Position numbers and translations under genes: made by a program
Notes under the pieces: generated by a model
Seen by the model: only the letters and a program-made list of their open reading frames with translations
The model's database searches: none
What the model was told of the DNA's origin: nothing
Shown: piece by piece, positions 3,640-25,344 of the stretch
Numbering within the stretch: position 1 is the first letter of the stretch
Layout of the letters: every line of letters begins with the position of its first letter
Source: a virus
DNA: 44,054 nt
Strand: one strand, 5' to 3'
Virus record (IMG/VR): IMGVR_UViG_3300029494_000008

Positions 3640-6159
3640 ATGTTTTACGGATTTGTAATCACCGAGGCAGGAAACAGCCTGCTGGCCAGCATGGTGGCGG
3701 GCCAAACCCTGACCATCACAAAGGCGGTCGTGGGCGAGGGCACCGCAGACAACGCGGAGGCCGCCAGGAAGTTGACAAACCTGATCACCCCGGGGCCGGA
3801 GGCCACCAGCACCGAGCCGACGGTGGACGGGAACAACGTCAACATGATCGTGGAGTATCGGTCCGACCTGAACGGCGGCCTGCAGGAAGGGTTCTGGATC
3901 GGTGAATTTGGCATTTTCGGCAAGGTGGGGAACGGCGCGGAAACCATGATCGGGTACGGTTCCCTGGGCGACGCCAAGCAGTACGTGAGCGCCTACGTGG
4001 CCGGGGCCGCCCCGGACGTGCGCCGGTATCCCGTTTCCATCACCGTTACCACCGGGATCCAGGTTGACGTGGCATACCCGGCGGAGGCGTGGATGACCGC
4101 CGAGGACGTGGCGGAATACTTCAACCAGACATTGAAACCCGACCTGGAGGAGAGCCTGCAGGACCTGATCGACGACCACAACGAGGACCCGGACGCCCAC
4201 GGCGGCGCCCTGGAGGGCAAGCAGGACCAGATCAAGGCGGAGGGGATCCTGAAAGGGACCAAGACCACCACCGAGGAGGGCGACACGTACAGCGTGGGCG
4301 CGGCCACGCCTGGCACCGACTACCAGGCCCCCACCAACGCCCTGACAGCGGCGGCGGCCATGACCACCCAGGACCTGATCCCCTTCTATGACGTGGCGAC
4401 CGGCCAGCACAAGCGGACCACCCTGCAGGCGCTGAAAGAGGCCATCGGAGTGCAAAGCCCGGCCATCAACGTGACCACCTGCGCGGGGGCCTCCGTGACC
4501 TGTTCGGACGGCGTGACCACCCTGGAGGGCACCGGGTCAACGGAGTTTGAACTGCCAAACGTCGGAAACTGGACCGTGACCGCCACCCTGGACGGGGAGA
4601 GCGTGTCCGAGGTGGTGGAGGTGAGCGGCGCCCTGCTGTATGAGGTGGACCTGATGATCACGAGCGGGATCGCCGTGACGGCACAGCCGGACAAGACCAC
4701 CTATTTCATCGGGGAGGAGTTCGACCCGGAGGGCATGGTGGTAACGGCCACCTTTGCCGACGACACCACCGCAGACGTGACCGAGGACTGCACCTTCTCC
4801 CCGGAAACCATGGCGGCGGGCACCCAATCCGTGACCATTACATACGTCCGGGCGGGCGTCACCAAGACCGCCACGGTGGCGGTGGCGGTGCGGACCCTGG
4901 ACCATATCGCCGTGACCACGCCGCCCAATAAGACGGCCTACAAGTACGGGGAAACCTTCCAGCCGGCGGGCATGGTGGTGACGGCCTACTACACCGACGA
5001 AACCAGCCGGACGGTGACGGGGTACACCTACTCCCCCACCGGCGCCCTGGACATGGACGACACCACGATCACCGTTTCCTACACGGAGGGGAGCGTGAGC
5101 AAGCAGACCACCCAGGCCATCACCGTGGCCAAGGTGCTGGAGAGTATCGAGATCACCACGCCCCCCAACAAAACCGCCTATTTCTCCGGGGAAACCTTCA
5201 ACCCGGCGGGCATGGTGGTGACGGCCCACTACAACGACGGGAGCAGCGCGGCGGTGACGGGGTACACCTACTCCCCCACCGGCGCCCTGGCCACGGGCAA
5301 CACCACGATCACCGTTTCCTATGCGGAGGGCGGCGTGACCAAGACGGACACCCAGGCCATCACCGTGACCGCGATCTCCAACACCCTGAACAGCAATTCC
5401 TGGGCCACCATCAAGGCCGTTTCGGACGCCGGGCAGGGCGCAAACTACTGGGACGTAGGCGACACCAAGCAGATCACGATCAACGGACAGGTGGGAAATA
5501 CGAACATTTCCAACCTGGCGATCAACGTGTTTATTATCGGGTTCAACCACAACGCCAGCCGGGAGGGTTCCAACCGGATCCACTTCAAGATCGGCAAAAT
5601 CGGCAGCACCCAGGTGGGCCTCTGTGATAACCAGTATAGCAATTACCAGAGCGGAAACGGGTATTTCAACATGAACCCGAACAACAGCAACAGCGGCGGG
5701 TGGGCCAACTGCCACATGAGAAAGACGATCCTGGGATCCGACGCAAGCCCCACCAGCCCACGGGCAAACACCCTGCTGGCGGCCCTGCCGGCGGACCTCC
5801 GGGCCGTTATGAAACCGATCACCAAGTATTCGGACAACACCGGCGGCGGCAACAATACGGCCAGTTACGTGACCAGCACCACGGACTACCTGCCCCTGCT
5901 TTCGGAGTTCGAGTACCACGGCGCCCGGACCTATGCCAACAGCGCGGAGCAGAACTTCCAGCAGCAGTACGCCTATTATCAGGCGGGCAACAGCAAGGTG
6001 CATTACAAGCACAACGCCACCGGCACGGCGGCCTTTGCGTGGTGCCGGTCCGTCATTGCGACGAACACGAACGGTTTCTGCCGTGTCAACACCAACGGCA
6101 ACGCCAACAGCAGCGACGCGTACTATTCCTGGGCCGTGGCCGCCGGCTTTGCGGCCTAA
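3640..6159 (+). CDS. Tail fibre / receptor-binding protein and DGR target. It has three Ig-like repeats and a C-terminal variable region.
   Basis: 839 aa with SD 'aggagg' upstream. The three 80-aa repeats follow the pattern 'xPxKTxYxxGExFxPxGMVVTAxY...'. The last 126 nt before the stop pair with the template repeat at 6762-6887. Confidence 0.85.
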   Translation: MFYGFVITEAGNSLLASMVAGQTLTITKAVVGEGTADNAEAARKLTNLITPGPEATSTEPTVDGNNVNMIVEYRSDLNGGLQEGFWIGEFGIFGKVGNGAETMIGYGSLGDAKQYVSAYVAGAAPDVRRYPVSITVTTGIQVDVAYPAEAWMTAEDVAEYFNQTLKPDLEESLQDLIDDHNEDPDAHGGALEGKQDQIKAEGILKGTKTTTEEGDTYSVGAATPGTDYQAPTNALTAAAAMTTQDLIPFYDVATGQHKRTTLQALKEAIGVQSPAINVTTCAGASVTCSDGVTTLEGTGSTEFELPNVGNWTVTATLDGESVSEVVEVSGALLYEVDLMITSGIAVTAQPDKTTYFIGEEFDPEGMVVTATFADDTTADVTEDCTFSPETMAAGTQSVTITYVRAGVTKTATVAVAVRTLDHIAVTTPPNKTAYKYGETFQPAGMVVTAYYTDETSRTVTGYTYSPTGALDMDDTTITVSYTEGSVSKQTTQAITVAKVLESIEITTPPNKTAYFSGETFNPAGMVVTAHYNDGSSAAVTGYTYSPTGALATGNTTITVSYAEGGVTKTDTQAITVTAISNTLNSNSWATIKAVSDAGQGANYWDVGDTKQITINGQVGNTNISNLAINVFIIGFNHNASREGSNRIHFKIGKIGSTQVGLCDNQYSNYQSGNGYFNMNPNNSNSGGWANCHMRKTILGSDASPTSPRANTLLAALPADLRAVMKPITKYSDNTGGGNNTASYVTSTTDYLPLLSEFEYHGARTYANSAEQNFQQQYAYYQAGNSKVHYKHNATGTAAFAWCRSVIATNTNGFCRVNTNGNANSSDAYYSWAVAAGFAA
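4657..5376 (+). repeat. Three tandem 240-bp in-frame coding repeats (4657-4896, 4897-5136, 5137-5376) encoding bacterial Ig-like (Big_3-like) domains.
   Basis: Repeats 2 and 3 share long identical strings, for example 'ccggcgggcatggtggtgacggcc' and 'gtgacggggtacacctactcccccaccggcgccctgg'. Confidence 0.85.
6025..6150 (+). repeat. DGR variable repeat (VR) at the 3' end of the tail fibre gene.
   Basis: It aligns without gaps to 6762-6887. There are 12 differences, and 11 of them fall at template adenines. Confidence 0.9.
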
Positions 6160-6240: not shown

Positions 6241-6699
6241 ATGTCTGTCCTGAAAAGCAAGCGATCCACCAGCAAGGCGGAGTATGTGAACCTGGCCAAT
6301 GAGATTTACACGGAAACCGTGGCATTTTTGACCCGGCTTTCCGCCAGGTACGCCCGCCTGCTGGCGGAGCCGGTGGCGGCGCTGGCCGGGGAGGTGATCG
6401 ACCAGACGGAAAAGGCGAACAGCATTTTTCCAAAGGGAGAGCCGAACCTGGGCCTGCGGAAAGGCCACCTGCTGGAGGCCAGGGCCGCGCTTATGGCCCT
6501 GGACGTGCGCCTGGGACACTGTTACACCATCCTGGCGCTGAACCCGCAGGGGTGCTTTACCAAGCCGGACGGGAAAAGTGTACCGCCGGCGGAGGCCACC
6601 AAGAAACTGGATGATATGTCGCAGAGCCTGGGCGAAAAGATCGACCGGGAAAACGAACTGATCCGGGCCGTTCTGGAGAGCGACCGGAAAAGAAAATAA
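6241..6699 (+). CDS. avd: Accessory variability determinant (Avd)-like small basic helical protein.
   Basis: 152 aa, Lys/Arg-rich and predicted helical. It occupies the canonical position between the target gene and TR. SD 'gagaggagggg' lies upstream. Confidence 0.5.
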   Translation: MSVLKSKRSTSKAEYVNLANEIYTETVAFLTRLSARYARLLAEPVAALAGEVIDQTEKANSIFPKGEPNLGLRKGHLLEARAALMALDVRLGHCYTILALNPQGCFTKPDGKSVPPAEATKKLDDMSQSLGEKIDRENELIRAVLESDRKRK

Positions 6700-6761: not shown

Positions 6762-6887
6762 ACGGCGGCCAATGCGTGGTGCCGGTCCGTCAATGCGACG
6801 AACACGAACAATTTCTGCCTTGTCAACACCAACGGCAACGCCAACAACAACAACGCGAACAATTCCTGGGCCGTGGCCGCCGGATTT
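6762..6887 (+). repeat. DGR template repeat (TR).
   Basis: 126 nt with 33 adenines by hand count. There are 14 AAY codons in the VR-equivalent frame. It ends in an adenine-free 20-mer 'tcctgggccgtggccgccgg' that is shared with VR. Confidence 0.9.
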
Positions 6888-7112
6888 CACAACCCCGCGA
6901 GGGGAACGGGTCAAATGCAGTAGGAAACGAACCGGACCCTTTGTGAAAGGAGAGATACTGCCCGGGCCAAAAACCCGAAACCGCACTCTGTGGCCACTTC
7001 ACGGACGCTGCTTGCATGGCGGGCCTATTGTGCTAACCCCGTTTCATGTGAAGGGGCTACGCGTTTAGCCGCACACCTACACCACAACCGCACGGAGGCG
7101 CGAAAAAAATAT
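6888..7112 (+). ncRNA. TR-to-RT spacer, the probable non-coding 3' part of the DGR RNA.
   Basis: It lies between the TR end and the RT start codon. It has no convincing CDS and contains small GC stems, for example 'cccc gcga gggg' at 6893-6904. Confidence 0.4.
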
Positions 7113-8240
7113 ATGACCAGTGAGGAGCGCCGGGAGGCGCGATACCATAGACGACAGGCCGCCCGGGAGGCGCGGCGAAGGAAACGCAGCGAGGACCTGG
7201 GCGGGATCGCCCAGGCGTTCAGTTTCCGAAAAATGTTCAAATGGGGAAAGAAGTGCTGTAACAATGTCCGGTGGAAACAATCCACGCAGAATTTTGAACG
7301 GCACCTGTTTTCCGGCACGGCCCGCAGGCGGCGGGAAGTTTTATCCGGGAAGTGGCGGCCAAAGCCGGGCGCCCATTTCCTTCTCCGGGAGCGGGGCAAA
7401 ATCCGGCCCATAGACGCCCCGCACATCAACGACCGGCAGATCCACAAAACCCTGACCAAGGAGGTGCTGGAGCCGCTATACACGCCGGGCATGATCCGGC
7501 GGAACGGCGCCAGCCAAAAGGGAAAGGGACTGTCCTTCCACCATGAGGAACTGAAACGGATCCTGCGGGAGCATTTCAGAAAACACGGCCGGGAGGGTTA
7601 CGTGGTCCTTATGGACCTAAAGCAGTTCTTTCCCTCCGCGCCCCATGCGGCAATCTACGAGCGCCACCGGCGCCTGATCCTGGACCCGGAGATCCGGGCG
7701 GTGGCGGACACGGTGGTGGCCGCTGTGCCGGGCGGCGTGGGTATGCCCCTGGGCGTGGAGCCGTCGCAGATGGAAATGGTGTCCCTGCCGTCCGCCGTGG
7801 ACAACTGGATCGCCTGCCAACTGCGGGCGGAGGATCCGGCCCACTATATGGACGACTACCACATGATCGCGGAAACCAAGGAGCAGGCGGAGGCGTTCCG
7901 GGACGCCGTGACCGAGCGCATGGAGGCCATGGGGCTGACCGTGAGCCGGAGAAAAACCAAGATCGTGCCGCTGTCCAAACCCTTCCGGTTCTGCAAGGTA
8001 AAATTCCAACTGAAACCCACCGGGAGAGTGATCACCCACGGGAACCGGGACGGGATGAAACGGGCGCGGCGGAAACTGCGGGCGTTCAAGGCCAAGGTGG
8101 ACGCCGGGGAAATGACCGTCCAGCAGGTGCGGGCGTGGCTGACCAGCCAGATCGCCTATTTCGAGAACTACAACGACCACGGCCGGGTCCTCCGGCTGAA
8201 CCGGATATTTCATGCAATTTACGGAGGTGCAGAACCATGA
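7113..8240 (+). CDS. DGR reverse transcriptase.
   Basis: Motifs seen are 'LMDLKQFFPS', 'PLGVEPSQ' (the LGxxxSQ signature of DGR RTs) and 'YMDDYHMIA' (YxDD). I chose the ATG at 7113 with 'ggagg' upstream. The track start at 6990 is probably an artefactual extension. Confidence 0.9.
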   Translation: MTSEERREARYHRRQAAREARRRKRSEDLGGIAQAFSFRKMFKWGKKCCNNVRWKQSTQNFERHLFSGTARRRREVLSGKWRPKPGAHFLLRERGKIRPIDAPHINDRQIHKTLTKEVLEPLYTPGMIRRNGASQKGKGLSFHHEELKRILREHFRKHGREGYVVLMDLKQFFPSAPHAAIYERHRRLILDPEIRAVADTVVAAVPGGVGMPLGVEPSQMEMVSLPSAVDNWIACQLRAEDPAHYMDDYHMIAETKEQAEAFRDAVTERMEAMGLTVSRRKTKIVPLSKPFRFCKVKFQLKPTGRVITHGNRDGMKRARRKLRAFKAKVDAGEMTVQQVRAWLTSQIAYFENYNDHGRVLRLNRIFHAIYGGAEP

Positions 8241-11768: not shown

Positions 11769-12314
11769 TTATCGGGCAAAGAACACGCCCAAGGGGCTGC
11801 CGGAGGGGGACCGCCACCCGGCGGGGTGAATGTCCTCCAGGGCCTCCCGGGAGGTGCGGCCATCCGACCATCGGATCACCGCCATGGTGGCGGCGGGGGT
11901 CCAGCGGGTGGCCTCCCTCTCCAGGAAACCGACGATCACGCCGACCTCCTGGGGGTACATGGCGCCAAAGTTCCCGATCACGGGCTGGCCGACCATGACC
12001 AGGCCGGGGTGCGCGGAGGGCTGGGCGTCCTGGGGAATGTAGGCAGACAAGGGATCCGCCGGGGCGGCCTCCTCCACCTCCTCCTGGTCCTCCACGTATT
12101 CACAGGAGGCCCGGAACACTGGGGCCATGCTGTACCGTTCCGGGACGATATACTCACCGTTGTGGTCCGCGTAGATCTTCGCCCGGCGCTCCTGGCCATC
12201 CCGGCGGAATGTCACCGTTTTGGCTGTACGCTTGACGATCTCCACCACGAAAACACAGTTGTGATCGCAGGCGCTGGTGGCGTAATAAGATTTTCCGACT
12301 TCAAAAGTGGACAT
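11769..12314 (-). CDS. Hypothetical protein in the minus-strand accessory block.
   Basis: 181-aa ORF with a normal amino-acid composition, unlike the antisense artefacts. SD-like 'aaggggg' lies upstream on the minus strand. Confidence 0.65.
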   Translation of the reverse strand: MSTFEVGKSYYATSACDHNCVFVVEIVKRTAKTVTFRRDGQERRAKIYADHNGEYIVPERYSMAPVFRASCEYVEDQEEVEEAAPADPLSAYIPQDAQPSAHPGLVMVGQPVIGNFGAMYPQEVGVIVGFLEREATRWTPAATMAVIRWSDGRTSREALEDIHPAGWRSPSGSPLGVFFAR

Positions 12315-12441
12315 TCTGGAAACCCCCTTGATTTATTCGCCTTACTCTTGTAAAATCAGGGTGGGCCGGCGTAAGGCTGCCGGCCGCCCTGTTTGGGTTT
12401 GGTGCGCGGTTCACTTGCGAGGTGGGGCCGCGCACCGCTTT

Positions 12442-12567
12442 TTATGCCTTGACCTTGCTATCCCGCACGATCTTTGCGGCGGCCGCAGGGTCCGAGGCGG
12501 TGGCCTCAATCAGTTTTGCGATATTCTCTAAAAACTGATTGAGTTCCGCTGTGGTCATTTCGTCCAT
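12442..12567 (-). CDS. Small 41-aa ORF, the first gene downstream of the leftward switch promoter.
   Basis: Hand translation gives MDEMTTAELNQFLENIAKLIEATASDPAAAAKIVRDSKVKA*. SD-like 'gaagtgaggga' lies upstream. It is too short to appear in the ORF track. Confidence 0.4.
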   Translation of the reverse strand: MDEMTTAELNQFLENIAKLIEATASDPAAAAKIVRDSKVKA

Positions 12568-12617
12568 TCCCTCACTTCCTTTCGTAAGGGGCTGGCCGCC
12601 CCTGCCTTACGAGTATC

Positions 12618-12646
12618 ATTATATACTTGAACAAGTATATTTGCAA
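12618..12646 (-). promoter_or_regulatory. Leftward sigma70-like promoter: TTGCAA, 17-nt spacer, TATAAT on the minus strand.
   Basis: -35 at 12641-12646 and -10 at 12618-12623 (plus-strand 'attata'). The 17-nt spacer is exactly the right-hand 17 nt of operator O1. Confidence 0.6.
12621..12640. promoter_or_regulatory. Operator O1, a perfect 20-bp palindrome ATATACTTGAACAAGTATAT.
   Basis: 9-bp arms 'atatacttg' and 'caagtatat' around 'aa'. Confidence 0.65.
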
Positions 12647-12654
12647 GAGTGAAC

Positions 12655-12686
12655 CTGCACAAACTTACACAAGTATATTTGTGCAG
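12655..12686. promoter_or_regulatory. Inverted repeat 'ctgcacaaa' / 'tttgtgcag' enclosing an O1-type half-site 'caagtatat' (12670-12678).
   Basis: 9-bp arms at 12655-12663 and 12678-12686 with a 14-nt spacer. Confidence 0.45.
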
Positions 12687-12689
12687 ATT

Positions 12690-12709
12690 ATATACTTGAA
12701 CAAGTACAC
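12690..12709. promoter_or_regulatory. Operator O3, an 18/20 copy of O1 (ATATACTTGAACAAGTACAC).
   Basis: Direct comparison with 12621-12640. It overlaps the -35 box of the rightward promoter. Confidence 0.6.
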
Positions 12710-12724
12710 AAAAGGCGCTATAAT
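12696..12724 (+). promoter_or_regulatory. Rightward sigma70-like promoter: TTGAAC, 17-nt spacer, TATAAT.
   Basis: -35 at 12696-12701 and -10 at 12719-12724. It is followed by SD 'aaaggagg' and the ATG at 12746. Confidence 0.65.
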
Positions 12725-12745: not shown

Positions 12746-12949
12746 ATGGAAGGAACAAAGGGGACGGCGGCAACCAGAGCAAAAAACAAGTATGCGGCCG
12801 CGAATTATGAGAGGCTTTCCCCCTTCGTGAAGAAAGGGAAAAAACAGAGGTACAAGGACGCGGCGGCGGCTGGAGGATATAGCAGCCTGAATGAATTTAT
12901 AGAAACCGCCATGGACCGCCTGGCGGACGAAATCCTGGGGAAAGAGTAA
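12746..12949 (+). CDS. Ribbon-helix-helix (Arc/CopG-like) DNA-binding protein.
   Basis: 67 aa. The pattern '...YERLSPFVKKGKKQRYKDAAAAGGYSSLNEFIETAMDRL' has a beta strand plus two helices, as in RHH proteins. It is the first gene of the rightward operon. Confidence 0.55.
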   Translation: MEGTKGTAATRAKNKYAAANYERLSPFVKKGKKQRYKDAAAAGGYSSLNEFIETAMDRLADEILGKE

Positions 12950-13099: not shown

Positions 13100-13342
13100 G
13101 TGAAGAAATTTCTATATCACGGGAAAAAGAATATCTGCGGGGACCGCATACGCATGGCGAGGCTGGGGAAACGGCTATCACAAACGGACCTGGCCCGCCT
13201 CCTTCAACTGGAGGGCGTCCCGATGGAGCGGGACGTGATCAGCCGGATGGAGATGGGGGATCGCCTGGTCACGGATTATGAGGTGGTCACAATAGCGGAG
13301 GTCCTGGACGTGCCCGTGTTATGGCTGTTAGGGAAAGAATGA
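13100..13342 (+). CDS. XRE-family (Cro/CI-type) helix-turn-helix regulator.
   Basis: 80 aa. 'GDRIRMARLGKRLSQTDLARLLQLEGVPMERDVISRME' is a classic HTH_3 pattern. GTG start with 'ggagg' 7 nt upstream. Confidence 0.8.
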   Translation: MKKFLYHGKKNICGDRIRMARLGKRLSQTDLARLLQLEGVPMERDVISRMEMGDRLVTDYEVVTIAEVLDVPVLWLLGKE

Positions 13343-13345
13343 GAG

Positions 13346-13377
13346 CGGCCGGCGTGAAAATCACGCCGGCCGTTTTT
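13346..13377 (+). terminator. Rho-independent terminator: perfect 12-bp stem, 3-nt loop and T5. It doubles as a palindrome next to the transposase gene.
   Basis: 'cggccggcgtga' + 'aaa' + 'tcacgccggccg' + 'ttttt'. Confidence 0.75.
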
Positions 13378-14495
13378 CCGCGCAAAGGGGGAAAATATGA
13401 ATTACAAAGGGTATCACCATCTAAAATGGGAGGACCGCCTGAAAATCGAGGGGGCGCTGAAAACCGGGGGCAAGCCTGCGGAGATCGCGGAAATGCTGGG
13501 GGTTTGCGTCAAGACCATATACAACGAGATCAAGCGGGGCCTGTGCCTCCAGCAGAAAGAGGGATACATATTCCAGGAGGAATACTGCGCGGAGGTGGCG
13601 GAGCGGAAGTACCAGGAGCATTTAAGGGCCAAGGGGCCGGAGATCAAACTGGGCCGGGATCATGCTTTCGCCAACTTCGTGGAGCGGAAGATCATAGAAG
13701 AACACTATTCCCCCGGGGCGGTGCTGGCCTATATCGAGGCGGCCGGCCTGGAATTTGAAACCCATATCTGCGAAACAACCCTTTATTCCTACATATACCG
13801 GGGGGACGTGTTCCTGGAACTGACGGAGGAACACCTGCTGTATAAAGGGGAGCGGCGGCGGGACTACGAGCAGCGGGAGCGGGCCAAAGAGGCCCCAGGG
13901 GACACCATCGAGGACAGGCCGCCAGAGGTCCGGGCGCGGAATACGTTTGGACACTGGGAAATGGACAGCATTATGGGGCCGGTGGGATCAAAGGCGGCCC
14001 TGCTGGTGCTGACAGAGCGGCTGACGCGGTGGGGGCTGGTGATCCGGGTCCCGGACCATACAGCGGAAAGCGTGGTCCGGGCGCTGAACCGGGTGGAGCG
14101 GAGGATGGGAAAGCGGTTCCGGGAAGTGTTCCGCACCATCACCGTGGACAACGGCAGCGAGTTCATGGACTGCGCTGGCCTCCAGAGATCATACCGGCTG
14201 AAAGGCCCACGGACGAAAATATATTACTGCCACCCCTATTCCCCGCAAGAGCGCGGGAGCAACGAGAACATGAACCGGATCCTGCGGCGGTGGTTCCCAA
14301 AGGGGACCAACTTCGATCAGGTGACGGAGGCGGAGGTGGCCCAGGCGGCGGAGTGGATGAACAACTATCCGCGCCGGATCCTGGGGTGGAGATCCGCCGG
14401 GGCCGTGTTCGAGGAGTACGTAGCCGCCTGAAAATCTGAACAGCGGGAGCGGGACGGCCGGGGCCGGGTTTTGGCCGCCGGTGATTTTTCACGCC
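13351..14495 (+). mobile_element. Candidate IS30-family insertion sequence unit (~1.15 kb). The boundaries are tentative.
   Basis: 'ggcgtgaaaatcac' at 13351-13364 matches the reverse complement of 14481-14495, 'ggcgtgaaaaatcac'. These flank a single DDE transposase ORF. No clear target-site duplication was seen. Confidence 0.35.
13397..14431 (+). CDS. IS30-family DDE transposase.
   Basis: 344 aa. It has an N-terminal HTH 'PAEIAEMLGVCVKTIYNEIKRG' and a DDE triad context 'HWEMDSI', 'ITVDNGSEF' and 'RGSNENMN'. Confidence 0.9.
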   Translation: MNYKGYHHLKWEDRLKIEGALKTGGKPAEIAEMLGVCVKTIYNEIKRGLCLQQKEGYIFQEEYCAEVAERKYQEHLRAKGPEIKLGRDHAFANFVERKIIEEHYSPGAVLAYIEAAGLEFETHICETTLYSYIYRGDVFLELTEEHLLYKGERRRDYEQRERAKEAPGDTIEDRPPEVRARNTFGHWEMDSIMGPVGSKAALLVLTERLTRWGLVIRVPDHTAESVVRALNRVERRMGKRFREVFRTITVDNGSEFMDCAGLQRSYRLKGPRTKIYYCHPYSPQERGSNENMNRILRRWFPKGTNFDQVTEAEVAQAAEWMNNYPRRILGWRSAGAVFEEYVAA

Positions 14496-14522
14496 CTGGG
14501 ATCGCCGGGAACGGGAGAAAAA

Positions 14523-14548
14523 GGCCGCTCCACCATGGTGGAGCGGCC
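14523..14548. other. Perfect 26-bp palindrome 'ggccgctccacc at ggtggagcggcc'.
   Basis: 12-bp arms. An A5 run lies upstream, which reads as T5 on the minus strand, so it looks like a minus-oriented terminator or a recombination site. Confidence 0.4.
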
Positions 14549-14597
14549 CAAGTATACCACACGTCAAAAATTTTTCTTGATATTTTGTAATTTATCC

Positions 14598-14626
14598 TTG
14601 ACTTTTTCACAGGCAGACATTATCAT
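14598..14626 (+). promoter_or_regulatory. Sigma70-like promoter: TTGACT, 17-nt spacer, TATCAT.
   Basis: -35 at 14598-14603 and -10 at 14621-14626. An AT-rich UP-like tract lies upstream. It sits 64 nt before the ATG at 14690. Confidence 0.6.
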
Positions 14627-14628
14627 TA

Positions 14629-14669
14629 GGTTACACAAGGTCATTCGACCGCGTGTGACCTAATTTTTT
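14629..14669 (+). promoter_or_regulatory. Imperfect palindrome GGTTACACAAGGTC / GACCGCGTGTGACC followed by a T6 run. It could be an operator over the transcription start site or a terminator/attenuator.
   Basis: 12 of 14 positions pair, the loop is 'attc', and 'taatttttt' follows. It starts 3 nt after the -10 box. Confidence 0.4.
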
Positions 14670-14689
14670 GTCCGTTTGGAGGTGAGGAC

Positions 14690-14965
14690 ATGGCCGACTA
14701 TGCTTTCAGAACCATCGAGGACCGGCGGAAGATACAGGAAATGTGGGAGGAAGGAAGATCGCCGCGAGAGATCGCGGGGGCCTTTGAGAAATCCCTGGAT
14801 GTAGTTTATACCGAACTTTCCCGGGGCCGGGATGGAACGCGCCTGCCGGATCAGCGCCTGCGGTATAGCGCGGATCTGGCCCAGCGCAAGGTGCAGCAAT
14901 CCCTGGAGCGGCGGGGCAGAAAAGCCGGAAAGCCCACCACCGGGAAAAGAGCGGCGGGCCTGTAA
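14690..14965 (+). CDS. Orphan HTH protein homologous to the N-terminal DNA-binding domain of the IS30 transposase.
   Basis: 'RTIEDRRKIQEMWEEGRSPREIAGAFEKSLDVVYTELSRG' aligns with the transposase segment 'LKWEDRLKIEGALKTGGKPAEIAEMLGVCVKTIYNEIKRG'. Confidence 0.6.
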   Translation: MADYAFRTIEDRRKIQEMWEEGRSPREIAGAFEKSLDVVYTELSRGRDGTRLPDQRLRYSADLAQRKVQQSLERRGRKAGKPTTGKRAAGL

Positions 14966-15862: not shown

Positions 15863-16222
15863 ATGCTACGGCTGACGGCGAACAAGACGAAACTTTACAC
15901 ACTGGTGGCGGATTATGTGGACAACCTGCCGCCTATGCGAAAAACCGAGTTTATAAAATACCCGCGCACCCCCGACTATGCCCTGGAGTGGGCCACGGAG
16001 CGGGAGAAGGGCCGCGCCTTTCTCTCTGCCTGCATGGGCCGCCCCCTCCTGAAAATCGACATTGACGAAAAAGAAACCGGCCGACTTGTACGGGGCGCGT
16101 GCAAGTACATAGACCTGCAGGACCTCCGGGAGCGGGGCATGGTGGAGGAGTTCACCACGGCGGCGGAGCGCCGGCGGATAGAAAGGGGTGCCGACAATGG
16201 CGGACTTTCTCCCGCTACCTGA
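15863..16222 (+). CDS. Hypothetical protein.
   Basis: 119-aa ORF whose ATG directly abuts the previous stop. Confidence 0.6.
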   Translation: MLRLTANKTKLYTLVADYVDNLPPMRKTEFIKYPRTPDYALEWATEREKGRAFLSACMGRPLLKIDIDEKETGRLVRGACKYIDLQDLRERGMVEEFTTAAERRRIERGADNGGLSPAT

Positions 16223-16772
16223 CAGGGAATACCAGGTGATTTACGCGGATCCCCCGTGGGAGTACCGGCAACACGGGACCACGGCCAAGAGCCGGGGAAA
16301 CGCGGCCCAGCACTATCCCACCATGACCACCGAGGATATATGCAAATTGCCAGTGAAGAAAATCTGCGGGGGGGGGGCAGCCTGTTTCATGTGGGCGACT
16401 TTCCCAAACATCGCGGAGGCGATCAAGGTTCTGGAGGCGTGGGGGTTCGTTTACAAAACCGCCGCTTTCGTGTGGGTCAAGACCTACGCCAAGAGCGGGC
16501 GGCCGTTTTGGGGAATGGGCGCCTACACCCGCGCAAACGCGGAGGTGTGCCTGCTGGGGGTGTCCCCCGGGTTCAAGGCCCGGGAGCGGATCCGCAGCCA
16601 CCGCGTCCACCAGGTGATCACGGCCCCCTTTGAGGGGCACAGCAAAAAGCCGGACGAAACGCGGCGGCGGATCGTGGAACTGCTGGGGGATGTGCCACGG
16701 CTGGAACTGTTCGCCAGGGACCGCGCCCCAGGGTGGGACGCCTGGGGGAATGAGGCGCCGCCGGAAGAATAG
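16197..16772 (+). CDS. MT-A70-family DNA N6-adenine methyltransferase.
   Basis: 'IYADPPWEY' is the DPPW catalytic motif, and '...HSKKPDE...' is also present. The ATG at 16197 is preferred over the GTG at 16188. The gene contains a G10 tract at 16368-16377. Confidence 0.8.
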   Translation: MADFLPLPDREYQVIYADPPWEYRQHGTTAKSRGNAAQHYPTMTTEDICKLPVKKICGGGAACFMWATFPNIAEAIKVLEAWGFVYKTAAFVWVKTYAKSGRPFWGMGAYTRANAEVCLLGVSPGFKARERIRSHRVHQVITAPFEGHSKKPDETRRRIVELLGDVPRLELFARDRAPGWDAWGNEAPPEE

Positions 16773-19586: not shown

Positions 19587-19979
19587 GTGACGGAGTTCGA
19601 GAAGATCACCGCCTCCCCTGCCGTCCTGGGCGCTTTCCTGGGTTCCCTTCCCTGCCTGGAAGGTCCGTGGGACGACGCATTTCACCGGGAGTTCTGCGAC
19701 AAGTGCAAGGCGGAAAACTGCGACGCCTGCCCGCATGAGGCAGAGCGGAACAGCCCGACGTGGTGGCTGGGGCTGATCCACACGGGGACCGGGCCGGTGA
19801 GGACCGAGAGCCGGAACCCATACCTGCAGCAGGCCGCCAACCTCCGCCTGGAGGCCATGCACCAGCGGGACCGTTTCGGCCGTGACCTGCTGGCCCGGGA
19901 ACTGGAGAGCGCGGCGGCCACCATTGAGGAACTGGCGGCAGAAATGGAGGCGCGGACCCATGGAGAACCGGGCCTTTAA
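19587..19979 (+). CDS. Hypothetical Cys-rich protein.
   Basis: GTG at 19587 follows 'gggaggg'. It contains the motif 'CDKCKAENCDACPH'. Confidence 0.5.
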   Translation: MTEFEKITASPAVLGAFLGSLPCLEGPWDDAFHREFCDKCKAENCDACPHEAERNSPTWWLGLIHTGTGPVRTESRNPYLQQAANLRLEAMHQRDRFGRDLLARELESAAATIEELAAEMEARTHGEPGL

Positions 19980-20598
19980 TATGGATTGCATGGAGGCCAT
20001 GCGGTCCATGCCGGATCAATGTTTCGACCTGGCCGTGGTGGATCCGCCCTATGGGATCAGGATAAGCAACAATATGGGGCGGCGGAAGGGTGAGCGGCCG
20101 AGCGGATACAAAAAAGTGACCTGGGACGACACGCCACCGCCGCCGGAATACTTCACGGAACTGGTGCGGGTGTCAAAAAACCAGATCATTTTCGGGGCCA
20201 ACCATTTTGTGAGCCTGATCCCGGCGGCGGATAGTTCGTGCTGGATATGCTGGGACAAGGGATTTTCCAGTGAAGTGTCCTTTGCCTCCTTTGAACTGGC
20301 CTGGACCAGTTTTGACAGACCGAGCAAGCGCGTGGCGCTATCCTCCGCCCAGGCCGGAAGGATACACCCAACGCAAAAGCCGGTGGCGCTGTATGCCTGG
20401 ATTTTTCAACACTATGCAAAGCAAGGGGACCGGATCCTGGACACACACCTGGGGAGCGGGTCAAGCCGGATCGCCGCGTGGGACGCCGGCCTGGACTTCA
20501 CAGGGTACGAGATCGACCCGGAGTATTTCGAGGCCCAGGAAAAGCGGTTCCAGCAACACACCGCGCAAATGTCCCTGTTCGGCGGGGGGGGTATCTGA
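19960..20598 (+). CDS. DNA methyltransferase of the N6-adenine/N4-cytosine class (DPPY motif).
   Basis: 'LAVVDPPYGI' and '...HPTQKPVALY...DTHLGSGSS'. ATG at 19960 with 'ggagg' 9 nt upstream. There is a G8 run at 20584-20591 near the stop. Confidence 0.8.
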   Translation: MENRAFNMDCMEAMRSMPDQCFDLAVVDPPYGIRISNNMGRRKGERPSGYKKVTWDDTPPPPEYFTELVRVSKNQIIFGANHFVSLIPAADSSCWICWDKGFSSEVSFASFELAWTSFDRPSKRVALSSAQAGRIHPTQKPVALYAWIFQHYAKQGDRILDTHLGSGSSRIAAWDAGLDFTGYEIDPEYFEAQEKRFQQHTAQMSLFGGGGI

Positions 20599-21581: not shown

Positions 21582-21884
21582 ATGAAAATTTACATAGCGG
21601 GAAAGATCGCCGGGGATCGGCGGTATCGGGCAAAGTTCCGGGAGGCAGCCAAGGTCCTGGAGGCGGCCGGCCATGTGGTCCTGAACCCCGCCACCCTGCC
21701 GGACGGATTGACCGACGGGGACTATATGCGGATCGCGCTGGCCATGCTGGAGGCGTCGGACCTGGCCGTGTTCCTCCCTGACTATCAGGAGAGCCGGGGC
21801 GCCATGGTGGAATGGGCCTGGTGTCAGAGGACCGGGAAAGAGTGCGCCCTGTATCTGGACATGACGGGAGGCGGGGCAAAATGA
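21582..21884 (+). CDS. DUF4406 / nucleoside 2-deoxyribosyltransferase-like protein.
   Basis: 100 aa with the pattern 'MKIYIAGKIAGD...VLNPA...'. Confidence 0.55.
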   Translation: MKIYIAGKIAGDRRYRAKFREAAKVLEAAGHVVLNPATLPDGLTDGDYMRIALAMLEASDLAVFLPDYQESRGAMVEWAWCQRTGKECALYLDMTGGGAK

Positions 21885-23716
21885 GCCGGACGACCGCGCA
21901 GGTGTCCTTTCTGGATGAAATCATCGTGGACAGTTTCGCCGGCGGCGGCGGGGCCTCCACGGGGATCGAACTGGCCACCGGCCGCCCCGTGACCATCGCA
22001 ATCAACCATGACCCTGACGCCATTTTAATGCACAAGACCAACCACCCGTACACCGAGCATTACCAGGCCAGCGTGTGGGACGTGGATCCCCGCGAGGTGT
22101 GCCAGGGCCGGCCGGTGGGCCTGCTGTGGGCCTCCCCTGACTGCAAGCATTTTTCCAAGGCCAAGGGGGGAAAGCCGGTAGACAAAAACATAAGGGGCCT
22201 GGCCTGGATCGTCCTGCGGTGGGCCGGAACCGTGGCGCCCAGGGTGATCATGCTGGAGAACGTGGAGGAGTTCCAGACCTGGGGACCTGTCCGAAAGGGA
22301 CGCCCGGTGAAGTCAAAGGCGGGCCAGACGTTCCGCCGGTGGCTTTCCCAACTGGAGGCCCTGGGCTATGCCGTGGAATGGCGGGAACTGGTGGCGGCCG
22401 ACTATGGAGCGCCCACCACGCGAAAGCGGTTTTTCCTGATCGCCAGAAGGGACGGGGAACCCATTGTGTGGCCGGAGCCAACCCACGCGCCGGCGGACAC
22501 CCCGGAGGTGCTGGCAGGCCGGAAAAAGCCGTGGAGGAGCGCGGCGGAGGTCATAGACTGGAGCCTGCCCTGCCCGTCCATCTTCGACACACGGGAGGCC
22601 ATCCGGGAGAAATACGGGCTTTCCGCCCAGCGCCCCCTCCGCCCCAATACCATGCGGCGGGTGATCCGTGGGGTGGACAAGTTCTCCATCAAAGCGCCGG
22701 ACCCGTTCCTGGTGGTGGTGAACCATGCCGGAAACTTCCGGGGGCAGGACGCGGCGGACCCACTCCAGACGGTGACGGCAAAGCACGGGTATGGCGTCGC
22801 CTCCCCCGTCATGGCCCCGCTGACCATGCACAACAACGAGAACGCCACGGGGACCAAGATCACCGAGCCGGTGAACACGATCACAAGCAGCGGAGCGGGA
22901 GGCCATCAAATGGTGATCACCCCGGCCATGATCCAGTACCACACCGAGCAGACCGAGCGGGTACGGGGGCAAGGGCTGGCGGAACCCCTTATGACCATTG
23001 ACGCCTCCAACCGTTACGGCCTGGCGGCGGCCAGCCTGGTCAAATACTACGGGAGCGACCAGCATGGCCAGAGCGCCGGGGATCCGCTCCACACCGTCAC
23101 CGCAAAAGACCGGGAGGGCGTCCTGGCGGCGAACCTGGCCAAGTTCTACGGCGGAGCATATACCGGGGAGGGGTCCAGAATGTCCGACCCGCTCCACACG
23201 GTCACGGCCGTGGACCACAACGCCATGACGGCCACCCACCTGGTCAAAATGAAGGGGACCAACCTGGGCGGCCCCATGTCGGAGCCGGTGCAGACCATCA
23301 CCGCCGGCGGCGGCCACTTCGGCGTCGTCACCACCGTGGTGGCCAAGGCGGAGCGGGACGCGGATCTGAAACACTGGCCGGAGATCCGGGACCTGCTGAA
23401 CACCTACTGCGGGTATCGCCTGGGGCCGGAGGACGTGATCCTGTTCGAGATCGGAGGCACGGCCTATTTCATGGCAGACATAGGATTGCGTATGCTGACG
23501 CCCCGGGAATTGTATATGGCCAACGGGTTCCCCCAGGACTACAAGATCGAGCGGGATTATACCGGGCGGGAGTACCCAAAGACCAAACAGGTGGCACGGT
23601 GCGGGAACGCGGTTCCCCCTCCCTTCGCCACGGCCCTGGTGCGGGCCAACCTGCCGGAGTGGTGCGGCGTCGAGATCAACACCATGGAGGAACTGGAAAA
23701 GGCGGTGGCGGTATAG
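21881..23716 (+). CDS. DNA (cytosine-5) methyltransferase with an expanded, repetitive target-recognition region.
   Basis: Motif I 'DSFAGGGG', motif IV 'SPDCKHFS', motif VI 'LENVEEF', motif VIII 'TRKRFFLIA' and motif X 'GNAVPPPF'. There are six '(D/E)P(L/V)xT(V/I)(T/D)A'-type modules between motifs VIII and IX. Confidence 0.85.
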   Translation: MSRTTAQVSFLDEIIVDSFAGGGGASTGIELATGRPVTIAINHDPDAILMHKTNHPYTEHYQASVWDVDPREVCQGRPVGLLWASPDCKHFSKAKGGKPVDKNIRGLAWIVLRWAGTVAPRVIMLENVEEFQTWGPVRKGRPVKSKAGQTFRRWLSQLEALGYAVEWRELVAADYGAPTTRKRFFLIARRDGEPIVWPEPTHAPADTPEVLAGRKKPWRSAAEVIDWSLPCPSIFDTREAIREKYGLSAQRPLRPNTMRRVIRGVDKFSIKAPDPFLVVVNHAGNFRGQDAADPLQTVTAKHGYGVASPVMAPLTMHNNENATGTKITEPVNTITSSGAGGHQMVITPAMIQYHTEQTERVRGQGLAEPLMTIDASNRYGLAAASLVKYYGSDQHGQSAGDPLHTVTAKDREGVLAANLAKFYGGAYTGEGSRMSDPLHTVTAVDHNAMTATHLVKMKGTNLGGPMSEPVQTITAGGGHFGVVTTVVAKAERDADLKHWPEIRDLLNTYCGYRLGPEDVILFEIGGTAYFMADIGLRMLTPRELYMANGFPQDYKIERDYTGREYPKTKQVARCGNAVPPPFATALVRANLPEWCGVEINTMEELEKAVAV

Positions 23717-24380: not shown

Positions 24381-24563
24381 ATGAGAGAGAAAAAGAACCT
24401 GCGGCGGGTCACTCTCCTGGTGACGGCGCAGACCGCCTACAACCTGGACAGGCTGGCCACCATGTGCGGGTATCGGGAGCCGGGCCACGTCGTGGATAAA
24501 CTGGTCCGTGAGAAAATGCTGGAACTGAACGGAGGTAAACGCCATGAACGAAACGAAAATTGA
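24381..24563 (+). CDS. Hypothetical small protein, possibly RHH-like.
   Basis: 60 aa with 'RRVTLLVTAQTAYNLDRLATMCG...'. Confidence 0.45.
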   Translation: MREKKNLRRVTLLVTAQTAYNLDRLATMCGYREPGHVVDKLVREKMLELNGGKRHERNEN

Positions 24564-25344
24564 CTGGGCGGAAATGTCCTGGAACCCCGTCACCGGGTGC
24601 CGCCATGGGTGCCCCTACTGCTACGCCAGGAGAACCGCGCACCGCTTTGACGCCGGCCTGGAGGACCACGCAAGCACGGACGGCCTCCACGTCCTGGAGG
24701 AGAAGATCAAGGGGACGCCGTACCCCTACGGGTTCGAGCCAACCATGCACCGCTACCGGCTGAACCAGCCGGAGCGGAAGAAAGAGGGCCGGACCGTCTT
24801 TGTGTGCAGCATGGCGGACCTGTTTGGCCGCTGGGTGCCGACGGAGTGGATCAGGGACGTGGTGGACGCCTGCCAGAGAGCGCCCCAGCACAGATACCTG
24901 TTTTTGACGAAAAACCCCGCCCGATACCTGGAACTGGACCGGGTGGCCCTCCTCCCCCATGCGGAAAATTTCTGGTACGGGGCCACGGTGGCCAATGAGG
25001 ACGCGGCGGCCATGTACCCCATGCCCTGGGCGAATATCAACACATTCTGGAGCATGGAGCCGCTGCTGGGGCCGGTGGACATGAGCGCGGCGGAGGGCCT
25101 GCCCCGGTGGGTGATCCTGGGGGCCGAAACCGGGAACCGGATGGACAAGGTAAAGCCGCGCCGGGAATGGGTGGACCAGATCGCGGAGTTTTGCGCGGAA
25201 AACGAAATCCCGGTTTTCTACAAGGACAATCTGCGGGCCTACTTCCCGGACCTCCCACCCTCCGCCCTCCCCTGGAGCAACCAGGAGAGCGCGACAACCG
25301 AGTGGGCCGCCCATTTCATGGGCCGTTTTGAAAGGCAGGTGTGA
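24544..25344 (+). CDS. Phage Gp37/Gp68-family (DUF5131) protein.
   Basis: 'TKIDWAEMSWNPVTGCRHGCPYCYA' is the characteristic N-terminal signature. Confidence 0.7.
   Translation: MNETKIDWAEMSWNPVTGCRHGCPYCYARRTAHRFDAGLEDHASTDGLHVLEEKIKGTPYPYGFEPTMHRYRLNQPERKKEGRTVFVCSMADLFGRWVPTEWIRDVVDACQRAPQHRYLFLTKNPARYLELDRVALLPHAENFWYGATVANEDAAAMYPMPWANINTFWSMEPLLGPVDMSAAEGLPRWVILGAETGNRMDKVKPRREWVDQIAEFCAENEIPVFYKDNLRAYFPDLPPSALPWSNQESATTEWAAHFMGRFERQV

Follow-up and report, generated by a model that had tools for sequence, protein, structure and literature searches.

The IS30 element of E. coli, known from Kiss and Olasz, is 1.2 kb long, encodes a DDE transposase with an N-terminal helix-turn-helix (HTH) domain and generates 2-bp target duplications. 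Its reactive intermediate consists of abutted ends, in a circle or a tandem dimer, which are 2 bp apart, and the joined ends make a promoter of which the -35 is located in one end and the -10 in the other. As target, IS30 prefers a palindromic hot-spot or its own ends, and the IS30 transposase could stand in for lambda integrase in an engineered phage. Elements of the IS30 family typically have terminal inverted repeats of approximately 20-30 bp and duplications of 2-3 bp, and at least one IS30-type element, IS1630, is known to make long duplications. ICE6013 of Staphylococcus aureus is a large conjugative element moved by an IS30-like DDE transposase; it has a circular form with a short coupling sequence, makes short duplications and prefers AT-rich palindromic targets.

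Phages that use such an enzyme have been described as well. For Faecalibacterium phage Lagaffe, an IS30-family integrase, cos packaging and a prophage flanked by direct repeats were reported, and in the passages of the paper that we matched the authors call these repeats surprising (Cornuault et al., 2018, PMC5883640). The class was later generalised to approximately 1,780 candidates, named IScream phages, and the circle and particles were shown for an IScream phage of Blautia hansenii (Wirbel, Hickey et al., Nature 2025, PMC12823448). The original prediction for the locus described here, that a tailed phage integrating via an IS30-type transposase would be unusual, had been overtaken by the 2018 paper (PMC5883640) and by the 2025 paper (PMC12823448), and the main finding is therefore no novelty. 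Homing of a DDE enzyme to the vicinity of promoters has been described before as well, for the conjugative TnGBS elements of streptococci, which insert in intergenic regions 15-17 bp upstream of sigma-A promoters and have a circular form (Brochet 2009; Guerillot 2014, PMC3942029).

We analysed a 44,054-nucleotide stretch of DNA (the window), which is a circularly permuted Oscillospiraceae phage genome. The features by which IScream phages are recognised are present in the window: no canonical integrase, an outward-pointing full-length IS30 transposase within 1 kb of one end and, at most 1 kb from the opposite end, an inward-pointing truncated IS30-like ORF that lacks a catalytic domain. The window and the IScream phages also share Clostridia gut hosts, the occurrence of one phage in several host contexts and a full set of virion genes. 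For one IScream member the paper shows a circular genome and DNase-protected particles. The IScream paper describes the class in a composite-transposon-like frame, whereas here the ends, duplication, spacer, promoter and target are defined. A word search of its full text returned none of the terms 'promoter', 'direct repeat', 'inverted repeat', 'insertion site' or 'target site', and no 15-bp duplication, 2-bp spacer, split promoter or insertion 11 bp upstream of a -35 (PMC12823448). In the matched passages of the Lagaffe paper no repeat length or target rule is stated (PMC5883640), and our search of the literature on Saumur and Clostridium clostridioforme prophages found nothing on IS30-mediated integration. 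The additions beyond the published class are the defined ends, the 15-bp duplication, the 2-bp spacers, the terminator-like hairpins at both ends, the conserved joined-ends promoter and the landing rule, which together describe, at base-pair resolution, a group of phages that is very common in the human gut.

Lagaffe (NC_047911) encodes a transposase 48.7% identical to that of the window, and shares with it the gene order of lysis genes, HTH regulators, transposase and small HTH protein, as well as a DGR reverse transcriptase and myovirus-type virion genes. The junction motif of Lagaffe (TTGACT...TAATAT), followed by a hairpin and T-run, is like that of the window. Lagaffe differs in genus and host, and in the distance from transposase to tip (approximately 45 nt versus 178 nt). 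The layout of Lagaffe, Dulem virus 34 and Saumur is as in the window.

The transposase and its genetic context

The four genes that are relevant for the integration locus are the following.

12746-12949, plus strand: 67-aa ORF which opens the rightward operon that has the transposase gene as its last gene (gene calls, same prophage)
13100-13342, plus strand: XRE-family HTH regulator, 80 aa (Pfam HTH_3/HTH_31), always beside the transposase in relatives
13397-14431, plus strand: IS30-family DDE transposase, 344 aa (HTH_38; D190/D251/E290), pointing outward at the right end of the prophage
14690-14965, plus strand: HTH_38 protein, 91 aa (Pfam HTH_38), first inward-pointing gene at the left end of the prophage

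The gene at 13397-14431 encodes an intact IS30-family DDE transposase, as had been predicted. The protein matched the NCBIfam model NF033563 'IS30 family transposase' with 230.5 bits (cut-off 80) over model positions 2-267 of 267, the Pfam domains rve and, at the N-terminus, HTH_38, and phrog_4646 'transposase' (E 1e-120). Its DDE triad consists of D190 (HWEMD190), D251 (TVD251NG) and E290 (SNE290N). A curated-model match, a DDE triad in an rve-type core and an N-terminal HTH, which mark the IS30 family, were thus all found. Directly upstream lies the XRE-type HTH gene (Pfam), where a regulator had been placed before, and a promoter scan identified diverging promoter-like sites at 12618-12646 (minus strand) and 12696-12724 (plus strand).

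The transposase was the sole recombinase found, in agreement with the original prediction: no tyrosine or serine recombinase and no Mu-type integrase turned up among approximately 40 ORFs scanned with Pfam, NCBIfam and PHROGs, nor among the Pfam domains precomputed for this prophage in 20 host contigs. The exact transposase was the last phage gene in 10 of the 10 long host contigs, always in outward orientation, and was followed after 130-350 bp by a different set of host genes each time. Approximately 3,400 assembly blocks (3,398) were indexed for the exact transposase protein, a count similar to those for the left-end HTH gene (4,164) and the gene next to it (3,222). The upstream lysis genes and the XRE-transposase pair are kept while the identity of the transposase drops from 100% to 45%, and the transposase co-diverges with the phage down to approximately 45% identity.

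Element ends and junctions

Besides the genes, the following features were identified around the transposase and at the ends of the element.

13341-13377, plus strand: terminator-like hairpin and T-run between the XRE and transposase genes (fold -31 kcal/mol, z -5.4)
14457-14489, plus strand: imperfect GC hairpin followed by TGATTTTT, likely to terminate transposase transcription (-28.7 kcal/mol when 14440-14500 is folded)
14522-14549, minus strand: terminator-like hairpin which includes a perfect palindrome (terminator scan; fold -27.2 kcal/mol, z -4.05)
14578-14609, plus strand: right end of the element with tip ...TTGACTTTTTCA at 14609, -35-like TTGACT at 14598-14603 and subterminal repeat TGATATTTTGTAA at 14578-14590
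14610-14611, no strand: 2-bp coupling spacer CA between the abutted ends, outside the element and variable among junctions
14612-14643, plus strand: left end of the element with tip GGCAGACA... at 14612, -10-like TATCAT at 14621-14626 and subterminal repeat TTACACAAGGTCA at 14631-14643
14625-14670, plus strand: left-end hairpin built from the subterminal motif in two inverted copies, with a T-run behind it (-28 kcal/mol, z -4.4)

In host contigs the right boundary of the prophage was always window position 14609 (...CCTTGACTTTTTCA) and the left boundary position 14612 (GGCAGACATTATCA...). BLAST homology to the window breaks off at 14609-14613 in 10 of 10 host contigs. The right tip (...TTTTTCA) was adjoined by 18 different host flanks, and 17 different host flanks were found upstream of the left tip (GGCAGAC), which in eight contigs with differing hosts starts 78 nt before the HTH_38 gene. 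The junctions had been expected at 13358/13360 or 14535/14536; these positions are wrong, and the actual junction, 14609-CA-14612, is located approximately 180 nt downstream of the transposase stop codon (178 nt from the stop at 14431 to the right tip). This gap is 45-70 nt in Lagaffe, Dulem virus 34 and a lineage with 51% transposase identity. The right-end motif ...TAATTTAnCC-TTGAC(A/T)-6 nt is common to several lineages. The left-end subterminal repeat is in register with that of the right end; inverted-repeat matches in this phage are weak, with 7/19 at the tips and 10/13 in the in-register subterminal block, which, as read from the sequences, is clearer in the 51% lineage (14/17) and in Lagaffe (11/11).

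All eight independent junctions between right and left end have a spacer of exactly 2 bp (CA, GT, CT, AA, TC, TC, GT and GA; six dinucleotides), as have four junctions in the 51%-identity lineage (gt, tg, gc and aa), so that the 2-bp spacer of the IS30 family is found in both. Circle-type junction contigs exist, two of which are IMG/VR viral contigs. The exact junction pattern gave no matches in IMG/VR, where junction copies differ by one base in the left end, and the right-end pattern alone retrieved four contigs. Scanning metagenomes with the left-end pattern yielded eight loci only, and further sites were obtained by look-ups of the exact protein. In the single scaffold with known flanks the spacer (GT) equals the first 2 nt adjoining the right end. 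This scaffold (LIXU21_6) contains a tandem dimer of which the two copies are identical over 12 kb, and because of this identity it could be an assembly loop. The spacer would be derived from 2 bp of host flank, as suggested by this one informative case, and the spacers may keep a trace of where the phage was inserted before.

A perfect 15-bp direct repeat was present in 7 of the 7 prophages for which both junctions were available. Short target duplications at the proposed junctions had been named as possible support for mobilisation of the whole phage; duplications were indeed found, but at 14609/14612 rather than at the proposed points and with a length of 15 bp, not the 2-3 bp that is typical for the IS30 family. 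Compared to IS30, the element is also far larger (44 kb) and its targets lie upstream of promoters; compared to ICE6013, it lacks conjugation genes.

The two palindromes that had been proposed as abutted element ends do exist. In the first (13346-13357/13361-13372), which lies 24 nt before the ATG, two perfectly matching 12-nt arms are separated by 3 nt, and the second (14523-14535/14536-14548) is perfect and was measured as 13+13. Both fold into strong hairpins that adjoin U/T runs (-31 kcal/mol, z -5.4, and -27.2 kcal/mol, z -4.05), and are terminator-like instead of element ends. In L030, L039, L043, Lagaffe and Dulem 34 the gap between XRE and transposase genes likewise holds a hairpin with T-run, of differing sequence. 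The T-run of the hairpin at 14522-14549 is on the minus strand and the hairpin therefore faces transcription that comes into the right end from outside, whereas the terminator-like hairpin at 14625-14670 faces inward and has counterparts with U-runs at the left ends of Lagaffe, Dulem 34 and Saumur. With such terminator-like structures at its two ends, the prophage would be shielded from host transcription.

These structures bear on the proposal that the transposase gene belongs to a 1.15-kb IS30-family IS (13351-14495) which is a passenger next to the lysogeny switch. The 14/15-nt inverted repeat on which it was built is present, with ggcgtgaaaatcac at 13351-13364 and an inverted copy with one additional A at 14481-14495, so that it flanks the transposase gene with one indel, and true IS30-family insertions in phages exist (Staphylococcus prophage phiPV83, approximately 30% identity). 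However, the hairpin at 13341-13377 holds both the first palindrome and the left repeat, which forms loop and stem of the XRE terminator, a structure that is kept in relatives while its sequence is not; the right repeat overlaps the hairpin at 14457-14489 and the T-run of this transposase terminator. The tests that had been proposed for this reading also went against it: no relative lacks the 1.15-kb segment, the gene co-diverges with its neighbours, and no solo copies were found among 73 genome loci or approximately 40 metagenome contigs. Moreover, the copy number of the transposase follows that of other phage genes, the mobile unit actually ends at 14609 and 14612, and the stop-to-tip gap of 45-70 nt in relatives leaves no space for a right end of an IS. 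We consider a passenger IS extremely improbable.

The transposase is very probably the integration enzyme of the phage, with the whole 44-kb genome as a single IS30-type transposable unit. Of the alternative in which the transposase mobilises the whole phage, the IS30-type enzyme and the circle with a 2-3-nt spacer are thus retained, and the junction positions are not. According to the model that we propose, the window would represent a temperate, contractile-tailed phage (myovirus-type) of Oscillospiraceae in its circular or virion form. The ends of the free genome would abut at 14609/14612 with 2 bp between them, forming an IR-IR junction, the reactive donor in the IS30 family. During integration the ends would be joined to staggered host cuts 15 bp apart, by which the 2-bp spacer would be lost and the 15-bp duplication made. 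To return to the free form, the transposase would rejoin the ends and take along 2 bp of flanking host DNA. The same enzyme would presumably catalyse both integration and excision, and excision may proceed by copy-out or by cut-out.

The phage encodes a terminase, portal, capsid, tube, tape measure, baseplate, fibre and lysis proteins. Its replication initiator matches REP_ORF2-G2P and phrog_3584, and its packaging genes encode a terminase with gpA ATPase and nuclease and a lambda-family portal. The free genome would be replicated by its own Rep-type initiator and packaged by the lambda gpA-type terminase, without Mu-style transposition. A Mu-like lifestyle, in which the transposase would drive replicative transposition and DNA would be packaged from integrated copies, seems very unlikely to us. 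Tailed phages of this kind (Mu, Mushu) share DDE transposition, many insertion sites and a target duplication with the window, which, like Mu, has its regulators and transposase close to one end. None of the other characteristics of Mu (MuA/MuB, 5-bp duplication, replicative transposition and headful packaging with host-DNA ends) were seen in the window: the enzyme is of the IS30 type, no MuB-like ATPase was found among the scanned ORFs, the duplication is 15 bp, and a Rep-type initiator and gpA (cos)-type terminase are present. The contigs contain clean junctions of right end, 2 bp and left end instead of variable host ends, and each host contig contains one prophage or one tandem pair. According to the matched passages on Lagaffe, its reads revealed a cos site and lacked variable ends, in contrast to those of Mushu from the same culture (PMC5883640).

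Insertion upstream of host promoters

At least 25 distinct insertion sites were identified, and the named hosts were Flavonifractor, Pseudoflavonifractor, Dysosmobacter and Oscillospiraceae. A related strain (L111, contig P0001) has an empty site with the 15-mer in a single copy, 11 nt upstream of the promoter TTGACC-17-TATGAT; the synteny upstream of it differs in this contig. Contig P0002 ends just upstream of the -35 hexamer, short of the 15-mer, and is unusable as an empty site. One 15-mer was used in both orientations in two samples (L018 versus L010/L020), and another was re-used by what seems to be a second, different phage of the class (L098 versus L114).

Of 55 unique outward flanks, 12 match TTGACA in at least 5/6 positions at an offset of precisely 26 (15 + 11) from the tip, where approximately 0.3 per offset is expected from the 31 matches across 106 other offsets. 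In an enlarged set of sites, 13 of 17 left flanks of the window lineage contained a -35/-10 pair starting at offset 24-26, as did 7 of 8 right flanks of distant lineages with TTGCAA tips at the same offset. Two of the 17 left flanks (L102, and L105, which is the same site as L119) were without a clear sigma-70-type promoter. It is strongly supported that insertion appears fixed 11 bp (±1-2) upstream of host sigma-70-type -35 hexamers. The target would then not be a fixed att site but this position, and in the window lineage the left end would usually adjoin the promoter, which would fire away from the prophage.

Because all sites come from established lysogens (metagenomes and isolates), selection has acted on them, and the promoter association might reflect survivorship, i.e. 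near-random insertion after which only harmless intergenic lysogens persist. The two sites without obvious promoter fit this explanation, which we nevertheless regard as quite unlikely. Selection for intergenic sites would not fix the -35 at 26 ±1-2 nt from the tip, nor would survivorship yield the re-use of an exact 15-mer in both orientations, the sharing of a 15-mer by apparently different phages (L098/L114) or equal spacing in lineages with 35-45% transposase identity. Post-insertion selection could add to the promoter association, but cannot account for the exact spacing. A target that mimics the right end of the element itself, as in the 'IR targeting' of IS30, is not favoured either, as the orientation of the hexamer relative to the cut is opposite to that expected for right-end mimicry.

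Insertion directed to host promoters resembles TnGBS in target choice only, i.e. a DDE enzyme acting at a fixed short distance upstream of a promoter. The TnGBS transposase is related to Mutator/IS256 and not to IS30, TnGBS is conjugative and not viral, and both the distances and the duplication length differ; the window contains neither a Mutator-superfamily transposase nor a conjugation module. Our literature search found no report of promoter-proximal homing for IS30-type enzymes or for any phage. If true, such homing would let these phages land safely at thousands of positions and not at a single att site, and the landing rule would explain the many host contexts in several families without gene disruption. 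The rule would also be a testable case of the way in which promoter architecture may be recognised by a transposase.

A predicted split promoter at the junction and the left-end HTH gene

The promoter scan also predicted a promoter at the junction itself (14598-14626; 10/12 matches, 17-nt spacing), of which the -35 (TTGACT) belongs to the right end and the -10 (TATCAT) to the left. This split promoter is conserved in five lineages (those of the window, Lagaffe, Dulem 34 and Saumur, and the 51% lineage), in which the -35 is located 6-7 nt from the right tip and the -10 8-9 nt from the left tip. The junction promoter would drive the early genes only in the circle, and as integration parts the -35 from the -10, the early genes are proposed to be switched off in the prophage. 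The conserved layout points to a switch by which the early genes may be silent in the prophage by topology and on again once the transposase re-forms the circle. For the class as a whole, we lean towards single IS30-type units that home 11 bp upstream of the -35 and have an early promoter split by integration. Escape of junction-promoter transcripts from the left-end terminator, on the idea that they begin within the stem of its hairpin, was considered and dropped; RNA from 14633 still folds a hairpin near the U-run.

The 91-aa ORF, which starts 78 nt inside the left tip, encodes a paralogue of the transposase's N-terminal DNA-binding domain (BLASTP 31% identity, E 3e-8); phrog_11420 matches this ORF and also residues 6-80 of the transposase. 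The gene at 14690-14965 corresponds, by its sequence, to the 'truncated IS30' of the IScream description. With IS30-related ORFs at both prophage ends (the 344-aa transposase and this HTH_38 paralogue), the phage could be viewed as a composite transposon, the analogy used in the IScream paper, in which an intact and a decayed IS30 flank and move the phage; inward copies are truncated or fused and miss the catalytic domain (PMC12823448). We consider this unlikely for the present element, although the unit may have arisen long ago from two copies of an IS. Each prophage end has a single tip, inner IS ends are not discernible, Lagaffe has only approximately 45 nt between transposase stop and tip, and abutted ends with a 2-bp spacer are the behaviour of one IS30-type unit. 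Intact counterparts of the 91-aa ORF are present in Lagaffe, Dulem 34 and Saumur. The ORF is intact, of similar size, in the same place and with its motifs kept in four lineages, of which the transposases are 43-49% identical to that of the window, and it therefore looks like a retained function rather than decay.

Genome content and element ends

The window (44,054 bp, 62% G+C) carries almost all of its genes on the plus strand. Its virion and lysis genes encode baseplate J, a Big_3 tail fibre, a LysM endolysin, a lambda-family portal, capsid, tail tube and tape measure, packaging is represented by a gpA-type terminase and replication by a Rep-type initiator; a diversity-generating retroelement (DGR) reverse transcriptase and three DNA methyltransferases are also present. 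With the tape-measure gene at 40.5-42.8 kb and the baseplate J gene at 1.8-3.0 kb, the tail module appears to continue across the window ends, and the window is therefore a circularly permuted complete genome. In one integrated copy, ~44.4 kb separate the junctions (contig coordinates).

The 344-aa transposase scored 230.5 bits against NF033563 (cut-off 80), contains the Pfam domains rve and HTH_38 and has all three catalytic residues (D190, D251 and E290), matches that identify it as a full IS30-family enzyme. The IS30-type ORF, the 14/15-nt inverted repeat and both palindromes of the original prediction were found where it had placed them. No tyrosine or serine recombinase was found among the ~40 ORFs scanned with Pfam, NCBIfam and PHROGs.

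Roughly 3,400 assembly blocks are recorded with exactly this 344-aa protein. In all of the ten longest host contigs the transposase is the final phage gene, preceded by fibre, DGR, lysis and XRE genes and followed within 130-350 bp by host genes that differ per contig (e.g., BipA, PMT, Mur ligase, pantothenate kinase). BLAST of these ten host loci against the window ended homology at 14609-14613 in every case. The second end was found via the 91-aa ORF at 14690, where host genes end ~165 bp upstream in eight different contexts. In total, 18 right and 17 left distinct flanks were obtained, and base-level reading of the junctions gave the tips listed here with the neighbouring features.

Features around the joined ends
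13341-13377: hairpin followed by T5 (-31 kcal/mol, z -5.4), terminator between XRE and transposase genes
14522-14549: hairpin with T-run on the minus strand (-27 kcal/mol, z -4.1), facing transcription entering via the right end
14598-14603 and 14621-14626: TTGACT and TATCAT of the junction promoter, 17 nt apart (promoter scan, 10/12 positions)
14609: tip of the right end, ...ATTTATCCTTGACTTTTTCA
14612: tip of the left end, GGCAGACATTATCATTAGG...
14625-14670, plus strand: hairpin and T-run just inside the left end, inward-facing
14690-14965, plus strand: 91-aa HTH_38 paralogue of the transposase

The window itself reads right end-CA-left end, i.e., the element ends are joined across a 2-bp spacer. 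The left-end hairpin has structural counterparts in the relatives Lagaffe (a Faecalibacterium phage), Dulem virus 34 and Saumur, and we infer insulators against host read-in at both element ends.

Several further features of the genome were observed. The DGR is complete (variable repeat 6025-6150, template repeat 6762-6887, reverse transcriptase 6990-8240, plus 6241-6699); template and variable repeat differ at 12 positions, 11 of which are adenine in the template, and the variable repeat, 81-90% identical between prophage copies, is the 3' end of the Big_3 tail-fibre gene (839 aa, 3640-6159). The early region holds methyltransferases of three types, MT-A70 (16188-16772), N6_N4_Mtase (19882-20598) and a 634-aa C-5 cytosine methylase (21812-23716), presumably anti-restriction functions of a phage occurring in several host genera. 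The ATPase and nuclease domains of the gpA-type large terminase (918 aa, 27595-30351) begin only at ~residue 350; the N-terminal third, for which no family was matched, may represent a small-terminase or DNA-recognition module fused to the enzyme. A SWIM zinc finger is encoded by a 356-aa minus-strand ORF (36064-37134) that occupies a gap in the otherwise plus-strand head-tail module; the ORF resembles a moron or cargo gene. At 24544-25344, in the early/late boundary region, the match of a DUF5131 protein to 'radical SAM mobile pair protein A' stayed below threshold (93 bits, cut-off 355). The stretch at ~11770-12690 is the most variable among prophage copies that are otherwise 97-99.9% identical: indels leave a 71-aa minus-strand ORF in only some copies, and the 181-aa minus-strand ORF at 11769-12314 is replaced or truncated in some. 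This stretch adjoins divergent promoters (12618-12724) and is a candidate region for immunity or cargo genes.

The transposase as a phage gene

The transposase had been read either as part of a ~1.15-kb hitch-hiking IS or as the enzyme that moves the whole phage. Across 73 genome loci the XRE-transposase pair, often with upstream lysis genes, is retained from 100% to ~45% transposase identity, with neighbour genes diverging in step, and the transposase matches other phage genes in how often it occurs. The hairpin with T-run between XRE and transposase genes keeps its structure in five lineages with unrelated sequence, which makes the proposed left inverted repeat a terminator. Only 45-70 nt separate stop codon and tip in Lagaffe, Dulem virus 34 and a lineage with 51% transposase identity, leaving no space for an IS right end, and no solo copy of the proposed IS unit was found. 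On these grounds the IS reading is rejected, and by sequence comparison the transposase is a core phage gene, not a passenger. The principle of the whole-phage reading held, but the junction coordinates proposed with it were wrong, the real tips being at 14609 and 14612.

A tailed phage of this kind, predicted to be unusual, belongs to a published class. According to Cornuault et al. (2018; PMC5883640), the Lagaffe integrase is an IS30-family transposase, packaging is by cos, and direct repeats flank the prophage, to the authors' surprise. 'IScream phages', defined by Wirbel, Hickey et al. (2025; PMC12823448), lack an integrase; one of their ends bears a full-length IS30 transposase that points outward, and the opposite end a truncated, inward-pointing IS30-like ORF. 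All of these features occur in the window, and the class is therefore known. Those authors found 22 members among their data, and a gut virus catalogue gave them 1,780 candidates; they showed circle and particles for one Blautia hansenii phage and drew a comparison with composite transposons. By word search, their paper mentions neither promoters nor direct or inverted repeats, and neither insertion nor target sites; later papers that adopt the name add nothing on mechanism. Worth following up are the 15-bp duplication, the 2-bp spacers, the split promoter and especially the rule on promoter distance described below.

The left-end 91-aa protein aligns to the first 80 transposase residues in four lineages and has conserved motifs (DR.KIE, TIY.E..RG), which speaks for a DNA-binding role that has been kept and against decay. 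No MuB-like gene is present in the window; together with the Rep-type initiator, the gpA-type terminase and clean junction contigs, this argues against Mu-style replication.

Joined ends and the split promoter

Joined ends were read in eight independent sequences (the window, two IMG/VR contigs and five metagenome contigs), and the spacer was exactly 2 bp in all eight, with six different dinucleotides. The 51% lineage shows the same pattern (gt, tg, gc, aa). In the one scaffold whose flanks are known, the spacer (GT) is identical to the two host bases directly beside the right end, consistent with attack by one end 2 nt beyond the other; this is a single case, and its tandem copies are identical. 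Scaffold LIXU21-1_SAMN18385975_METAG-scaffold_6 (loci L020/L019/L010, ~185-273 kb) holds two head-to-tail prophages between one pair of host junctions, with a joined right end-GT-left end, and the copies are identical across the 12 kb that were compared; the arrangement may reflect a true tandem dimer or an assembly path through a circle. A tandem dimer is the classic IS30 intermediate.

The junction promoter is split by the ends, its -35 lying 6 nt from the right tip and its -10 9 nt from the left tip. Four other lineages are split likewise: Lagaffe (TTGACT-16-TAATAT), Dulem 34 (TTGACA-17-TACTAA), the 51% lineage (TTGACT-17-TATCAT) and Saumur (spacing 18, assuming a 2-bp spacer). Once the prophage is integrated the halves are 44 kb apart, so that early genes would lack the junction promoter and regain it in the circle. 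Joined IS30 ends have been reported to form a promoter, and the transfer genes of Tn916 need circularisation.

Target duplication and distance to host promoters

All seven contigs holding both junctions have a perfect 15-bp host direct repeat, and one such 15-mer is present once at the unoccupied site of a related strain (contig L111). One 15-mer target, lying between the genes for a pantothenate kinase and a phospholipase-D-family protein, was used in opposite orientations in two samples (locus L018 versus L010/L020); single sites also recur in several samples at L004/L009/L126 and L105/L119.

All unique flanks were oriented outward from the tip and scored for TTGACA at every offset. A match of at least 5/6 occurred at exactly offset 26 (15 bp of duplication plus 11 bp) in 12 of 55 flanks, against a background of ~0.3 flanks per offset, and thirteen flanks also had a -10 at 16-18 nt spacing. 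With four more sites added, a -35/-10 pair starts at offset 24-26 in 13 of the 17 left flanks of this lineage. Among the four exceptions, one uses a promoter site in reverse orientation, one has the apparent right end of a different class member exactly 15 bp off, and two have no clear promoter. This lineage seldom has a promoter at that offset in its right flanks; distant lineages whose tips are of the TTGCAA type have it past the right end instead, at the same distance (7/8 cases).

The unoccupied site reads upstream gene terminator, 15-mer, 11 nt, TTGACC-17-TATGAT, gene. Cuts fall at about -46/-47 and -61/-62 from the transcription start, and the host promoter retains 26 bp of its own upstream DNA after insertion. 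Selection alone cannot explain the fixed promoter spacing; the HTH domain or the 91-aa paralogue could recognise the promoter directly, or recognition could work through tethering to RNA polymerase. DDE insertion upstream of promoters has a known precedent in TnGBS, which differs in being a conjugative element with an unrelated transposase (PMC3942029).

The 15-mer GCGAATTAGGGCACC adjoins the left end of this phage in both contig L098 (reverse complement, 1-70) and contig L114 (~380-425). In L114 a host promoter comes after it; in L098 the sequence before it is ...LAS* GCATTTACTC-TTGACA-AATGGC, which resembles the stop codon of the transposase and the right tip in another phage of the class. 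L098, a possible chimera of only 3.2 kb, may hold two phages of the class in tandem at one 15-bp target.
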